This document shows positions 6,089 to 55,004 of a stretch of DNA of 64,000 nt, one piece after another. Within the stretch, counting starts at the first letter, position 1, and each line of letters begins with the position of its first letter. The notes beneath the pieces are model-generated. The model had not been told where the DNA came from. It made no database searches and saw only the letters and a list, made by a program, of their open reading frames with translations. The stretch lies in IMG/VR virus record IMGVR_UViG_3300025765_000001, one strand, 5' to 3'. Both the position numbers and the translations under genes were made by a program. The stretch is from a virus. Its lineage: Duplodnaviria > Heunggongvirae > Uroviricota > Caudoviricetes.

Positions 6089-7452
6089 TTGTGGTTCCTC
6101 AAGTAGTGTTCTAGGTCTTCCGGGGTGCCCAGCCCCCACATCTCTCTGATTTGGTAGTGTCTAATTTTCTTGCCATCGGATATAGCCTCGTTGTACACCG
6201 GGGCGACGTAGAACTCGTTATTGGTCCTGACATCTTTTTCTATCATTTGTTCAGCGTACTTGACGTAATCAGAACCTTTGTTCCAATAGTATATTCCTAC
6301 ATTTGCTATGTTTGAGATAGGTATCTTCTCTGCTACCTGACACACAAATCCGTTGTCGTCTAGTTTTACATAGCTCCATTTGGGATGTGTGGCATTGAAA
6401 GTCAATATACCGCCGTCTATATCAGAGGCACACATGGAATACATGAATTCGCTGCTATCCCAATCGATAAATTGATCTGAATTAGCTATTAGCAGGTGGT
6501 GGTCGCTGTCTATCAAGTGCTTAGCTAGTAACGTCGTACAAGCCGCACCCTCTGTCAAACCCTGAGTGCAGACGACTTCGCAGCCTGGGCGAATCAGATT
6601 CAACATTTGTTTGAGGTTGTACTGATCGTAATGCTCCTGCTGCACGATGAAAATAAATTTGCCCTCCAGCCCCAGATTCTCAACCACCAGTTGAATCATC
6701 GGTTTGCCAAGCACGTCGATTAGAGGCTTGGGGAACGTATAACCAGCCGCTTGAAATCTCTTTCCGGCCCCGGCCATAGGAATTAGCACATTGAGCTTAT
6801 CGCTTCTCCACTTCTGTCTATTGGAATCTACGCTGATTATCTGTTGCATAATGTTCTCGTAAGTAACCTCATCCATCCGCTCTATGCCGAACAAGTGTGC
6901 CCCCGCCTCCAGTGCAGCCTTGCGGCCCTGGGAAGAGTCCTCTACCACGAGGCACTCTTTTGGGTTCACGCCAGCATGTACCATGCAACGAAGATAAATC
7001 TCAGAATGAGGTTTAGGGTGAACGACATCTTCGTTGGAGATGAAATAGTCTACGTACTCAATCAACCCGGTACGGATCAGCATCAGCTTCATCGTCTCTC
7101 TAATCGAATTGCTAGCTACGTAAATTCGGTACTTCTTCCTCAGAGCTTTCAATACATCGCAGAGGCGATGATCGATCTTCAGTGACGAGTTGATGACCTC
7201 GATGGTGTGGTCTTGCTTGTCATGCCAGATTTGGTCGTAAGTTTCGGCTGGAAGACCCTTATTACTCGTGAGGAGTTGCAGTTTCTTGCGTGTCGGGAGG
7301 CCGTCGTAGATGAAGAAATGCTCGTTACGCTGTATAACAAAGCGAGAACCATGTTTCTCTAACGCCTTGTTCAGAGCTTGGTAGTGTATCTCTTTGGCAT
7401 CGACCAGCACGCCGTCTAGATCAAAGATGATGAGCTTAATAGGCTTGTCCAT
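6085..7452 (-). CDS. HAD phosphatase fused to sugar-phosphate nucleotidyltransferase
   Basis: FDLDGVLVD, KP, VVEDS HAD motifs; C-terminal IPMAGAGKRF..PKPLI nucleotidyltransferase domain. Confidence 0.9.
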   Translation of the reverse strand: MDKPIKLIIFDLDGVLVDAKEIHYQALNKALEKHGSRFVIQRNEHFFIYDGLPTRKKLQLLTSNKGLPAETYDQIWHDKQDHTIEVINSSLKIDHRLCDVLKALRKKYRIYVASNSIRETMKLMLIRTGLIEYVDYFISNEDVVHPKPHSEIYLRCMVHAGVNPKECLVVEDSSQGRKAALEAGAHLFGIERMDEVTYENIMQQIISVDSNRQKWRSDKLNVLIPMAGAGKRFQAAGYTFPKPLIDVLGKPMIQLVVENLGLEGKFIFIVQQEHYDQYNLKQMLNLIRPGCEVVCTQGLTEGAACTTLLAKHLIDSDHHLLIANSDQFIDWDSSEFMYSMCASDIDGGILTFNATHPKWSYVKLDDNGFVCQVAEKIPISNIANVGIYYWNKGSDYVKYAEQMIEKDVRTNNEFYVAPVYNEAISDGKKIRHYQIREMWGLGTPEDLEHYLRNHK

Positions 7453-7469
7453 GCCATATGTATGGCTGG

Positions 7470-7506
7470 AAAAACAAAACGCCGGGCCTTTTCAGGCCCG
7501 GCGTTT
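7470..7506 (-). terminator. intrinsic terminator after the RNase P RNA
   Basis: AAACGCCGGGCC-TGAAAA-GGCCCGGCGTTT hairpin followed by a T-rich run on the minus strand. Confidence 0.8.
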
Positions 7507-7771
7507 GGTTCGAGTAAGCGGGATTCTGGTTTATGCCTACATTTATCTCACAGGCACTTGTCACCTGTGGGCAGTCTATTACGACACGCCTGCACCTACC
7601 AGACCTTCACAGCCCTGCTCACCGGCTCCAGTCTATTTGGCTTGCATCCTCCGTGGTGCAGACGACCCTCGCTGGCGTACCAGCTACTCGGTCTCCCACG
7701 TTAAGCAGTGATGTCCCGACTTTCCTCTACCACGGTTGGCGATCCCGCAGCAGCGTAGGCTCCGAACCAAA
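7504..7771 (-). ncRNA. rnpB: RNase P RNA (type A-like catalytic domain, reduced S-domain)
   Basis: Minus strand has GAGGAAAGTCGGGA ... CAGAATCCCGCTTA (P4 with bulged U), P1 TTTGGTTCGGAG/CTCGAACCAAA, P2 GCCTAC/GTAGGC, GCAAGCCAAATAG, L15 GGTA and AGATAAATG; own promoter and terminator. Confidence 0.9.
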
Positions 7772-7775
7772 GTCC

Positions 7776-7803
7776 ATTATAGAAGTCCGCATCATTTCGT
7801 CAA
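7776..7803 (-). promoter_or_regulatory. sigma70-type promoter for the RNase P RNA
   Basis: TTGACG-16 nt-TATAAT on the minus strand; the -35 box lies inside a 12-bp inverted repeat. Confidence 0.75.
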
Positions 7804-7827: not shown

Positions 7828-8550
7828 TCAGTTTCTTTCTTCTGATTCCGGCTTCGGCTTCTTGATCTCTACCACGTCGGCGGCAACATTCCTGAACACA
7901 TGCTTCGACATCTGCTCGAAAAGATCGCCGAGCCAAGCGTAGATGCGGTTCCACAGATCGTAAAGTAGATCGCCGAGCAAATACCAGAACAGCGACCAGG
8001 GCCAGAACGCCATCCAGGTGATAATCTTGGTCTTGTTCTCCCATGCTCTGGGCCGCACGGTAAGAACCCTGTCATTGATGTCCTTGGAGAGTTTGGCATC
8101 CCACCTGTGAACCGGGACAAACGGCTTTTTTGGACGGGACCATTCATCGCTGTTGAGCAGGTAGAGTGTCCACTTCTTCTTCAATTCTTCGGGGATTTCC
8201 TTAGCATCTAGCAAGCCCTCCTCCCGAAGCCAAGCTAACTTGGCATCTTCGTACTTCCGACGCCGCTTGTGCAGGAAGACAAACCATTTGATAAAGCCCC
8301 ATGTGATGCCCAGGCCGATGAATCCACCTGCGTAGGGTACGATCATGTAGGGCCGCTCAATGAGCGTTTTGACGAGGCCAGTGTCACCAAGAAACACGCA
8401 GGCTGCCAGGAAAGCGAGGACCGAGAATCCGGCCCAATACCATCTGTTTTCTTCAATGGCCCAGATGATACAACTGCTCACCACTAGAAAGAGTAGCCAG
8501 AAGAGAGGACTGCCCAGGGTGAAGAGTACAATGAGAGGTTCGATGGTCAT
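7828..8550 (-). CDS. membrane protein
   Basis: Several hydrophobic segments; W..FWPWS motif. Confidence 0.75.
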   Translation of the reverse strand: MTIEPLIVLFTLGSPLFWLLFLVVSSCIIWAIEENRWYWAGFSVLAFLAACVFLGDTGLVKTLIERPYMIVPYAGGFIGLGITWGFIKWFVFLHKRRRKYEDAKLAWLREEGLLDAKEIPEELKKKWTLYLLNSDEWSRPKKPFVPVHRWDAKLSKDINDRVLTVRPRAWENKTKIITWMAFWPWSLFWYLLGDLLYDLWNRIYAWLGDLFEQMSKHVFRNVAADVVEIKKPKPESEERN

Positions 8551-8909: not shown

Positions 8910-8913
8910 AAAG

Positions 8914-8996
8914 TGCCCTTGGCAGGACTCGAACCTGCACGCCTTACGGTACATGGTCCTAAGCCATGCGTGTCTGCCTGATTCCACCACAAGGGC
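8914..8996 (-). tRNA. tRNA-Leu(UAG)
   Basis: GCCCTTG/CAAGGGC acceptor stem, CATGG-CTTAGGA-CCATG anticodon arm, long variable arm, GCAGGTTCGAGTCCTGC T-arm; CCA not encoded. Confidence 0.95.
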
Positions 8997-9217: not shown

Positions 9218-9947
9218 ATGATTTACTCTACCTGCCGACAAGTAGAAGTTGAGGATTCACGCTTCATAACCTGTGAGAGGTGCCGTGGAAAGCACGCCGA
9301 AAAAACAAGGAAGATCAGGAACAAGAAACCGGTTAATTGCACGGTATACGGGACGCCTCATTGTGATAGGAAGCCCAACGGCTATCCTTTTAAGCTCTGT
9401 GCTGTCTGCCGTGAGGCTGGCCTAACTAGAGTAACCCACTGCAAACAGCAACTTCTAGAGCGTTTGGCAACCGAACACAAATGTGTAAATTGCGGTTCTG
9501 TCTTTAATGTTTCTTCAGGGAACACCTTATGTGAAACGTGCCGAGAGAAAAATAAAACCAACCAGCAAGAGGCTAGAAAAAGGACGAATCGAAAATGGTC
9601 TTTGCCACATGTGCAGCGGCGAACGACAGGATAAAATCGGCAGATGCTATCGGTGCGTACTAAAGGCGATATCCTACGTTTGCTTGGAAACACGTTATCG
9701 GTGGAAAGAGATAGGTCTAATTCTGTTTGAAAAACAAAATCAGACCTGCGTGTATTCCGGTCAACCTATCAAGTTAGGTGTCGATACTTCCATAGATCAT
9801 AGAGTGCCACTTAGCAGAGGAGGTACACACGCCGCCGATAACCTGCAATGGGTTCGCATAGATATCAATACGGCGAAGAGCGGACTTCTTGAAGAAGAAT
9901 TCCTATCAATGATTTCCCAGATTCACTCTCACCGACTAGCATCCTGA
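9218..9947 (+). pseudogene. multi-Zn-ribbon HNH endonuclease, frameshifted
   Basis: Repeated CxxC pairs; frame change at an A-run near 9577; then CVYSG..SIDHRVPLSRGG..NLQWV..IN.AK HNH domain. Confidence 0.7.
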
Positions 9948-20851: not shown

Positions 20852-21252
20852 ATGTTCCCAGAATTCAGATGGCGGACTGCAATCGTTAGTCGAGCTAATG
20901 TTATTCGGTTTTCAAAAACATTGCAAGAGCAATTTTAAGGAGCTAGCCGTGGAGAAAAACGAACTAGTACAAGCCGGTTTCATTATCAGAAACCTAGTCA
21001 ACTTCTGTCGTTGGGGTGGGGAGAGTCTCAAAGAAGCTCCTTCTATACTGAAGAAAGTTGTCGAAAAAAAGCTGTACCTGGAGTTTTACATGTACGGCGA
21101 AGGTAATCCGAAAAGAGAAAACAATCAATGCGGCCTGTATTGATGCAGGACTAGCGGTGCCTAAGATTCAAGTCAACAAAAACGATCCTAAACAGGTTAC
21201 AAGAATACTATACAAGCACTACGGCAAGATTGGTATAAGAGTTGATAGATGA
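20852..21252 (+). pseudogene. frameshifted hypothetical gene
   Basis: Consecutive coding-like fragments in different frames. Confidence 0.35.
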
Positions 21253-21282
21253 GTTGCGTCGTTCACTAGACGAGAAATGATC

Positions 21283-21310
21283 TTGACTTCCTGTACCACT
21301 TTGCTATGAT
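21283..21310 (+). promoter_or_regulatory. sigma70-type promoter
   Basis: TTGACT-16 nt-TATGAT with extended -10 TG. Confidence 0.65.
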
Positions 21311-21316
21311 AAGGGG

Positions 21317-21683
21317 TGTAGATAACTGGGGCCAATAGCGGTGATAGCCGACTAGGGTGGTGATTCTACGACTCCACAAGAGCTTGAACTGTCCAAGTGA
21401 ATGTTGAGTTAAAAACCTGCAAGGCGGTGCCAGAGACCCTGGCGAGTAACGGCCTGCAAATAACTCGTGTAATCTGACGAGTCGATGATCGCATAGTTCC
21501 AAGGTAAGCCTACTAACGTCAAGGCCGTGCGGTGTGCTTCGGCACCCAAACAAGGTCGGTAGGTTAGGCGGAACTCCCGCAAGCGGGACTTAGCTTGCAC
21601 TGACAGAACTAACTCCGATGCCAAGTCGGTTCTTTGATGGCATAACGGAGAAGGTGTACTTGTGTCAATGATTTTGACACCCC
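21317..21683 (+). ncRNA. large structured ncRNA, unassigned
   Basis: Many nested stems (GCCAG/CTGGC, GTGC-TTCG-GCAC, TCCCG/CGGGA, GAGTTA/TAACTC, CTGTC/GACAG, GTTCC..GCCTA/TAGGC.GGAAC, CTCCG.ATGCCA/TGGCAT.CGGAG); promoter upstream; no credible ORF. Confidence 0.65.
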
Positions 21684-21802
21684 ATATATCTTCTCTTAAA
21701 TGCAACACAACACTAAGAACCGCTTTAGGCCCAGATTATGTACTCATTTCTGCTTTTCACTTCAGACTAGATTCATCTCGTTGGTTTTGGTATACTTCCG
21801 CC

Positions 21803-21976
21803 ATGACAACTTTGAGACATTTGAAGGTTGGAGACCGAGGCCAGTTCAAGACAAGTTGTGGCACCGAAATTACCGGCGTGGTTGTCGAAGCACGTCCAGA
21901 TGGCTACACTGTTCGTAGCGACTCAATCCAGAGCAATCGACATGAGAACGGATATTTCAGATTCACACTTTCCTGA
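21803..21976 (+). CDS. small SH3-like hypothetical protein
   Basis: MTTLRHLKVGDRG..G.VVE; TATACT 6 nt upstream. Confidence 0.5.
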   Translation: MTTLRHLKVGDRGQFKTSCGTEITGVVVEARPDGYTVRSDSIQSNRHENGYFRFTLS

Positions 21977-53857: not shown

Positions 53858-54196
53858 TGTGCTGTGTCATGAAACCATTGGAAGAATGGACCTTTGAAGA
53901 AGCGTGGCCGATATCAATTTACTTTGGTGAGCTAGATTACTCTTCCAGTGAGTTGTGTACAATTGAAGTCACATGAAGGTACAAGAGGGCTGTCTACAAA
54001 AACGTGTGGGTTGAGCCTTCCAGGGAAATTCCTAAAGCCGATGTGCCGGTTCAGTCGATGGGGATTAGCCAAAAATGTACCTACCAAAAAAATTCCGGCA
54101 AAAGTGTTGACCAGCCTACTACTATATGGTAACTTGGATTGTGTAGAAAAGTGAGTGACTGCGGCAGACTAGAGAACTAGATGATTGAAAGTATGT

Positions 54197-54225
54197 TTGA
54201 CACTTGCTTTGATACGTGCTAGATT
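54197..54225 (+). promoter_or_regulatory. sigma70-type promoter
   Basis: TTGACA-17 nt-TAGATT with extended TG. Confidence 0.6.
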
Positions 54226-54249
54226 TATATTACTAAATTATGTTCACTT

Positions 54250-54395
54250 GGCACACCAATGCCAGCGGTTTTGAGAAGCCGACCGTGATCTGAAGACTAC
54301 ACGCCCGAAAGGGTACAATTTGCGGAATGAGGGTCACAATGAATTCTCACACCACCCAAAAAGGCATAGGTGGGTTCGATTCCCACATGGGTGTC
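54250..54395 (+). ncRNA. tRNA-mimic small RNA with canonical T-arm
   Basis: GTGGG-TTCGATT-CCCAC T-arm; GGCAC(A)CCA/TGGGTGTC end stem; ATGCC/GGCAT closing a multi-hairpin domain; flanked by promoter and terminator. Confidence 0.65.
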
Positions 54396-54397
54396 TC

Positions 54398-54423
54398 GGC
54401 CAGCAGAAATGCTGGCCTTTTTT
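54398..54423 (+). terminator. intrinsic terminator
   Basis: GGCCAGCA-GAAA-TGCTGGCC-TTTTTT. Confidence 0.9.
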
Positions 54424-54432
54424 ATTGGTACG

Positions 54433-55004
54433 ATGATGAAAGTAGAACTGAATTGCAAACATTGTGGCACTCCTTTTTATACCTACGAGTTTTTGCTGGC
54501 TAAAGGAAAAGGCAAGTTCTGCTCTAGAAAATGCTACGAGCTAGGCAAGAGAAAGCAAGGTGCAGATTCTAAGGTCTGTGGCAAGTATGGCGACCAGAAA
54601 GCATTAGACGAGTTCACCGTTAGAAAGCGAAACGGAACCGGTTTGTGTGATGCCTATTGTAAATCATGTCGTTCTATAATTACCTGCGAACTTATGAGAA
54701 TCCCTCACACACGTTTTGCAAATGCTCGATGCAGAACCACCAAGAAGCGAGGGAGGCTTGGTGGACTATTTCAGAGGCAGAGTACACCGAACTGATTTCT
54801 GGGCATTGCCATTATTGCAAAGGCGTGTTAAACTCCACCGGCATTGGATTGGACCGCAAAGATAACTTTATCGGGTATACATCCGATAATGTAGTCCCTT
54901 ATTGCCGTCAGTGTAACATGGTGAAGAATGATTTCTTTACCTACGACGAAATGATGCTTCTAGCTCCAGTGCTAGAAGAAATCCGCAAAGCTAGGAGTTT
55001 ATAA
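54433..55004 (+). pseudogene. Zn-ribbon His-Me (HNH-like) endonuclease, frameshifted
   Basis: C..CG..FCS..C; frame change near 54752; CHYC..GLDR.DN..GY..DNVVP(Y)C..CN..K. Confidence 0.7.

Follow-up and report, generated by a model that had tools for sequence, protein, structure and literature searches.

RNase P RNA is, to our knowledge, a universal cellular ribozyme. Natural reduction of its size in small genomes is exemplified by the Rpm1 RNA of yeast mitochondria and by the 276-nt RNA of Mycoplasma fermentans. Mitochondrial RNase P RNAs also lose much of the catalytic domain (C-domain); the Mycoplasma RNA is of type B and keeps its specificity domain (S-domain). The archaeal type T RNAs, found in Pyrobaculum and other Thermoproteaceae, retain hardly any of the S-domain (Lai et al. 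2010; Chan et al. 2012, PMC3579882). At about 200 nt, these are natural RNAs that function despite the loss (PMC3579882). The engineered C-domain RNAs, such as the E. coli ‘CP RPR’, are laboratory deletions: the E. coli C-domain alone cleaves substrates, at reduced efficiency; it needs a P6-like pairing and, with the S-domain removed, can do without P18 (Mao et al. 2018, PMC5839562). A full-text search of the literature, including a 2024 review of RNase P, found neither a virus-encoded RNase P RNA nor a description of the RNA family set out below.

The window analysed here is a 64-kb stretch (G000:C1:22608-86607) of a 435,946-bp IMG/VR virus record, that of a T4-like phage with a Gp23-type major capsid gene and a CheckV completeness of 85%. 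A sequence-only reading of the window had proposed a minus-strand RNase P RNA of ~265 nt with the hallmarks of the catalytic domain, and every motif it listed is found in its place. The RNA gene, of 266 nt, occupies the gap between a membrane-like 240-aa ORF (which ends at 7828) and a gene for a HAD-nucleotidyltransferase fusion (which starts at 7452); a methyltransferase gene and a carrier-protein-like ORF are also among its neighbours. The promoter and terminator that had been claimed for it are both there (Table 1), and transcription is predicted to start ~6 nt downstream of the TATAAT, at the first base of P1. In the closest relative, L029, the TATAAT is kept at the same distance from the RNA; a terminator hairpin with its U-run is kept at the same place, in a partly different sequence. 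These signals establish the miniature RNase P RNA as a predicted separate short transcript, with a promoter and a terminator of its own.

With default settings, Rfam finds a tRNA-Leu in the window and no RNase P RNA or anything else. A comparison with Rfam covariance models had been suggested as a check on the proposal, and permissive cmscan does match the bacterial type A model: RF00010 is aligned over 7501-7770, model positions 1-367, with 51.2 bits and an E-value of 1.1e-14. RF00010 is the best RNase P clan member for the region (of each clan, cmscan retains one member per region, the best); neither the type T model RF02357 nor the archaeal model is the best clan match in that scan. The gathering score of RF00010 is 100 bits, and all members of the family fall below it, the relatives at 55-85 bits; being under this cut-off, the window RNA is missed by routine annotation. 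BLASTN against the GenBank phage collection gave no match to the RNA or to the first 20 kb of the window, and single-sequence minimum-free-energy folding of the RNA gave an uninformative z-score of -1.05. The end-to-end Rfam alignment, the covariation in 25 relatives and the Gp23-type capsid gene of the virus record together establish, as judged from sequence, that the phage encodes at 7505-7770 on the minus strand a homologue of the type A RNase P RNA of bacteria, in which the catalytic domain is complete and the S-domain has collapsed.

The likeness to type A RNA (E. coli M1, encoded by rnpB; RF00010) takes in P1-P5 with the bulged U of P4, P6 formed with the P17 loop, P15-P16-P17 with the GGU of L15, P18, and the conserved regions CR-I, CR-IV and CR-V; the J5/15 adenosines are present as well. 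The differences are those of size (266 nt, against ~350-400 nt), of the S-domain (one hairpin with its own joining strands in place of P8, P9, P10-P14 and CR-II/CR-III), of an extra hairpin before P18, of score (51 bits against a cut-off of 100) and of being encoded by a virus. With the engineered C-domain RNAs it shares a catalytic domain free of the S-domain, and their need of a P6-type pairing and dispensable P18 are matched by a family that always keeps P6 and mostly lacks P18; those are laboratory deletions of reduced activity, whereas the phage RNA is a natural, conserved gene with a P7-like stem and a structured stub. Type T RNAs resemble it in the near-total loss of the S-domain, but have an archaeal-type core, archaeal proteins and a cellular gene; the phage RNA clearly descends from bacterial type A, and its loss of the S-domain is therefore convergent with theirs. 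It shares natural size reduction with the small organellar and Mollicutes RNAs, but its catalytic domain is complete, its type is A and its S-domain is the part that has collapsed.

Table 1. Features of the miniature RNase P RNA gene and its surroundings, in the order of transcription (window positions; R1 is the family covariance model described in the text)
Feature	Position	Strand	Details
tRNA-Leu(UAG) gene	8913..8996	-	Same strand as the RNA gene, 1.1 kb upstream; Rfam scan
Sigma-70-type promoter	7776..7803	-	TTGACG 7798-7803, 16-nt spacer, TATAAT 7776-7781; 11/12 consensus matches
Whole miniature RNase P RNA	7505..7770	-	266 nt, from P1 5' strand to P1 3' strand; RF00010 51.2 bits, model R1 259.5 bits, covariation
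P1 5' strand, UUGGUUCG	7763..7770	-	Pairs with 7505-7512; all 7 P1 pairs compensatory in the family
P2 5' strand, GCCUACG	7754..7760	-	Pairs with UGUAGGC 7535-7541; 5/7 pairs changed on both sides
P3 hairpin	7727..7753	-	9 bp, 9-nt loop
CR-I: J3/4 and P4 5' strand AGGAAAGUCGGG, with bulged U (stretch GAGGAAAGUC)	7715..7726	-	Invariant in at least 24/25 members
P5 5' strand, CAUC	7710..7713	-	Pairs with GAUG 7645-7648; columns 76/201 C-G in 21, U-A in 4
P6 5' strand, CUGCU	7704..7708	-	Pseudoknot with AGCAG in the P17 loop, 7615-7619; 100% of cells paired
S-domain stub	7652..7700	-	P7-like stem CGUGG/CCACG, GA, helix GACC/GGUC, internal loop, hairpin GCUGG-UACG-CCAGC, 7-nt strand GUCUGCA
J5/15 (CAA), P15 5' strand (GCC), J15/16 (AAAUAG)	7633..7644	-	All 3 P15 pairs covary
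P16 (AGACU/GGUCU) and P17 (GCC/GGC), loop GGUGAGCAG	7601..7634	-	Compensatory: P16 4/5 pairs, P17 2/3 pairs
L15 GGUA (7597-7600) and P15 3' strand GGU	7594..7600	-	GGU conserved in the family
Extra hairpin between P15 and P18	7570..7593	-	Identical in L029
P18, CACAGG/CCUGUG	7549..7569	-	9-nt loop; L029 has CAGGGG/CCCCUG, two compensatory changes
CR-IV / J18/2, AGAUAAAUG	7540..7548	-	Conserved in the family
J2/4 and P4 3' strand (CR-V), ending in CCAGAAUCCCGCUU	7516..7534	-	Conservation and pair counts
Intrinsic terminator	7470..7506	-	13-bp GC-rich stem, 4-nt loop, U-run (stem and U-run 7506-7477); abuts P1 directly

Within the catalytic domain, the CR-I strand forms P4 with CCCGCUU at 7516-7522, in seven pairs of which 100% of cells are paired in the 25 sequences; one of these pairs (columns 70/332) is A-U in 17 members, G-C in 7 and C-G in 1. 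GCAAGCCAAAUAG lies at 7633-7645 on the minus strand. The GGU of L15 we take to be the tRNA 3'-end binding site of bacterial RNase P, at E. coli G292/G293. A hairpin of other sequence is found at the P15-P18 position in the alignment of L009, L013, L024 and L022 as well. Two other pairings were considered. P6 drawn as CUGC with a GCAG just 3' of P15 was rejected: the AGCAG of the P17 loop gives five pairs, and covaries in L004, where the compensated form is CUGUU with AACAG. A UGC/GCA extension of P15, proposed by RNAalifold, is invariant and hence untestable by covariation, and was for that reason left out of the structure. A single base of J2/4 sets the window RNA apart: position 7529, presumably the counterpart of E. 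coli A347, is C (CCAGAA), against A in 24 of the 25 relatives, L029 included, and in the Rfam consensus (ACAGAA).

The structure was tested by pair counts, made on an alignment of 25 sequences over the nested helices together with the P4 and P6 pseudoknots. The two pseudoknots were absent from the model with which the alignment was made and were written in by hand, because RNAalifold cannot draw pseudoknots and had put a spurious local hairpin over a P4 strand. Standard pairs make up 97.3% of the pair cells in the 25 sequences; the mean of 500 shuffles is 81.3%, and slid partners give 33-43%. Compensatory changes, on both sides of the pair, occur at 33 of the 53 pairs, and none of the 500 shuffles reached any of the observed measures. 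Every helix has several compensatory pairs except the almost invariant P4 and P6, which have one each. Collecting homologues for covariation was a further check that the sequence-only reading had proposed; with 25 relatives in hand, every helix counted is supported by covariation. L029 is 84% identical to the window RNA: the differences in P16, P17 and P18 are compensated, and the rest cluster in the apical hairpin of the stub.

Conservation of single positions is of a piece with this. At 82 of 268 positions the base is invariant in at least 24 of the 25 sequences, and the strands so conserved are those known to function in the catalytic domain: GAGGAAAGUC, ACUGCUUAA, GCAA, AAAUAG, the P17 loop, GGUA, AGAUAAAUG and CAGAAUCCNGCUUA. 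P6 is present in all members, and P18 is missing from 18 of the 25; in always keeping the one and so often losing the other, the natural family mirrors the biochemistry of the isolated C-domain.

The S-domain had been described beforehand as a segment of about 50-60 nt with no obvious CR-II or CR-III, and whether a normal-sized domain would emerge on proper alignment had been put as a check. None does: the specificity domain, ~140 positions of the RF00010 model, is matched by 57 nt of the window RNA. Between the two strands of P5 lie 61 nt, and 49 nt run from the 5' to the 3' strand of the P7-like stem. P8-P14, with the T-loop module of CR-II/CR-III, are not found in the window RNA; the P7-like stem and one irregular hairpin, 49 nt in all, stand there instead (Table 1). 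Three of the five pairs of the P7-like stem covary in the 25-sequence alignment. The design of the stub also recurs across the family: P7, GA, a helix, a hairpin, a 7-nt strand of the form G-Y-Y-N-N-N-A, and P7'.

The relatives come from several searches. A spacing-restricted pattern picked out reduced RNase P-like RNAs, of several classes, on 13 viral contigs; three of these RNAs (L004, L009 and L013, on contigs of 56-343 kb) are clearly of the same type as the window RNA. A family-specific pattern gave 23 metagenome loci; in 185,579 species-representative genomes the same pattern gave only five loci, all in metagenome-assembled genomes (MAGs). A covariance model, R1, was then built from four sequences, the window RNA included, and defines the phage miniature RNase P RNA family, the ‘ACUGCUUAA’ type. 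R1 collects 25 distinct members, complete or almost so, on viral and metagenome contigs, at 104-269 bits and with RNAs of 198-268 nt; the other reduced RNase P-like classes are matched more weakly, at 29-82 bits. In the 64-kb window it has exactly one match, a full-length one of 259.5 bits over model positions 1-255, a score that follows by construction from the presence of the window RNA among the seed sequences. The window RNA combines this full-length match with the family's order of P7-like stem, GA, helix, hairpin and G-Y-Y-N-N-N-A strand, in a virus record with Gp23. The 21 relatives that were not in the seed are independent evidence, at the level of predicted RNAs, for a family of miniature RNase P RNAs; the window RNA is one of a sizeable putative family, not an isolated case.

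Two of the five MAGs have a full-size type A RNA on another contig (179 and 226 bits), so the miniature is not the sole RNase P RNA there. In the remaining three only the miniature was detected, a state that fits incomplete bins; one of these is labelled Alcaligenaceae, a family with ordinary rnpB. A search for Gp23 in the five MAGs gave no match, an uninformative result.

The phage is rich in tRNA genes. The record holds 62-63 of them, many only 1-7 nt apart (for example at G000:C1:12152-18069 and 165134-192503, outside the window), together with a tmRNA gene (genome 100789-101150, tag GETPAYRMAA) and two PolyA_pol/CCA-adding-like genes (genome 323566-323937 and 397051-397533). In most loci of the family the RNA lies directly upstream of, or inside, a tRNA array on the same strand, with gaps of ~10-190 nt and arrays of up to 16 tRNAs. 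The P18-bearing subgroup to which the window RNA belongs (with L029, L009 and L024) is arranged otherwise: the RNA stands alone, outside a tRNA array, and a same-strand tRNA-Leu(UAG) lies 1.1-2.6 kb upstream of it. In the window, this tRNA-Leu is the nearest candidate substrate. Just past it is a 146-aa ORF (9507-9947, plus strand) with a weak match to HNH endonucleases (E ~1e-3, below the Pfam cut-off).

The flanks of the tRNAs have a pattern of their own. The discriminator is followed immediately by C-U in 51 of 62 phage tRNA genes, and CCA is encoded in only one; upstream, 43 of 63 genes have U at N-1 and 36 of 63 have A at N-2, where the genome as a whole has ~25% of each base. Of 96 tRNAs in arrays beside other members of the family, 70 have C-U after the discriminator; in arrays beside the other reduced RNase P classes, CCA is encoded in 100 of 183. 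U at N-1 is preferred by bacterial RNase P RNA. C74-U75 could pair with the two Gs of L15, in one Watson-Crick and one wobble pair; it could equally reflect processing of the 3' end.

The reading preferred here, to which we assign a probability of about 0.7, is that the window RNA is an active ribozyme that matures the pre-tRNAs of the phage, probably with the RnpA of the host. It would form the catalytic subunit of RNase P in the infected cell, and the predicted enzyme would remove the 5' leaders from the phage's 62 pre-tRNAs and from the tmRNA precursor. The conserved single strands would bind the catalytic metals, N-1 and the 3' end of the tRNA. Without an S-domain, the substrate would be positioned by contacts near the cleavage site: those with the acceptor stem, of L15 with the 3' end, of J5/15 with N-1 and of RnpA with the leader. 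We infer an altered recognition of substrates, since the module that binds the tRNA elbow is missing and the role of the S-domain in that recognition is established.

The protein partner is a question on which the phage genomes have something to say. The sequence-only reading had seen no rnpA in the window, and this now extends further: a search in six frames (PF00825, E up to 1) found none in the whole 436-kb record, the 85% completeness of which leaves a missing part that could hold one. Nor was rnpA found in another five large phage records with RNAs of this kind, of which two have a completeness of 96% or more. Each of the six records has exactly one sub-threshold RNase P RNA. In bacterial holoenzymes RnpA binds CR-IV, CR-V and the surroundings of P2-P4, and the RnpA-contacting motifs are retained in the window RNA. 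As no examined phage record encodes RnpA, the host's protein is probably borrowed. The same absence would also suit an active ribozyme that works with an unrecognised phage protein, or with no protein at all; archaeal and organellar RNase P RNAs, after all, use proteins unrelated to RnpA. This is unlikely, however, given the retained RnpA contacts and a neighbourhood in which no protein gene is common to the family: the 240-aa ORF is present only in the window and L029, and the remaining neighbours are genes for sugar and methyl transfer.

A different use of the same contacts can be imagined. The RNA might be a decoy or competitor, catalytically dead or weak, that soaks up host RnpA or competes for pre-tRNA, so that host tRNA maturation is shut down or re-routed. 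The preservation of CR-IV, CR-V and the P2-P4 surroundings in a phage record that lacks rnpA is compatible with this, and RNAs consisting of the C-domain only are weak catalysts (PMC5839562). Yet a decoy has no need of the L15 GGU, J15/16, the J5/15 adenosines, the bulged U of P4 or P6, all of which are conserved, with covariation; the invariance of the catalytic-domain strands argues for selection on catalysis and substrate binding, beyond protein binding; and a place at the head of phage tRNA arrays argues for making tRNA, not blocking it. A decoy accordingly strikes us as quite improbable.

It is also conceivable that the ribozyme, having no domain to measure the elbow, is active with tRNA maturation as a sideline, its main substrates being hairpin- or tRNA-like sites in other phage or host RNAs (operon mRNAs, tmRNA, regulatory RNAs). 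C-domain constructs do cleave simple hairpin model substrates (PMC5839562), and the window copy does lie outside an array, 1.1 kb from the nearest tRNA gene. Most of its relatives, however, directly adjoin tRNA genes, and permissive Rfam scans of the candidate structured-RNA regions 21000-21900 (21283-21683) and 53900-54700 (near 54250) gave no match at E up to 0.1, and thus no candidate substrate other than tRNA; there is only a slim chance that such sites are its chief targets. That the RNA is a functionless, decaying relic of a captured host rnpB is highly improbable: the sub-threshold Rfam score, the large deletions and the one substitution at an otherwise invariant position point that way, but 25 diverged relatives preserve the fold by compensatory changes, the promoter and terminator are intact and conserved, and the differences from L029 are compensated in the helices and otherwise clustered in the variable hairpin of the S-stub.

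If the members of the family are indeed RNase P RNAs of viruses, large phages would possess a catalyst of tRNA 5' processing beside their tRNAs, tmRNA and CCA-adding enzymes. It would supply natural minimal bacterial RNase P RNAs, of 198-268 nt, with which to ask how far the S-domain is needed in vivo; it would expose a blind spot of annotation, with every member under the Rfam threshold; and it would make compact ribozymes available to structural biology and to guide-sequence applications. An extension of the preferred reading, which we offer tentatively and think somewhat doubtful, is that the S-domain-less ribozyme, tRNA flanks tuned to it (U at -1, C-U after the discriminator) and the phage's own CCA-adding enzymes form a self-contained kit for tRNA maturation. 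Were this so, the 62 tRNAs would be matured independently of the host RNase P RNA, or in preference to it, and the phage would be the first natural case to prove that RNase P of bacterial type can work in vivo without a specificity domain.

The other reduced classes found among the viral contigs have different remnants of the S-domain (L002, L003, L005, L006, L007, L008, L010, L011, L012 and L014, on contigs of 10-389 kb). All but L012 lie within loci of 11-28 tRNA genes; aragorn found no tRNA genes in the 7.2-kb L012 locus. Some loci of the family are themselves irregular. A 1.5-kb metagenome contig (L030:1-418, minus strand) carries two miniature copies in tandem, 63 nt apart, the second cut by the contig end. 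At L021:168-356 the consensus is kept as far as AACAG in J2/4 and is followed by unrelated sequence, with the 3' strands of P4 and P1 missing; either the copy is disrupted or the contig was joined here in assembly. In a Gemmataceae MAG (G001:C117:60008-61042; L048 and L051), two sub-threshold RNase P-like RNAs are adjacent on one strand, 247 nt apart, one of 364 nt scoring 90 bits and one of 424 nt scoring 66 bits; the canonical RNase P RNA of this MAG and a miniature lie on further contigs.
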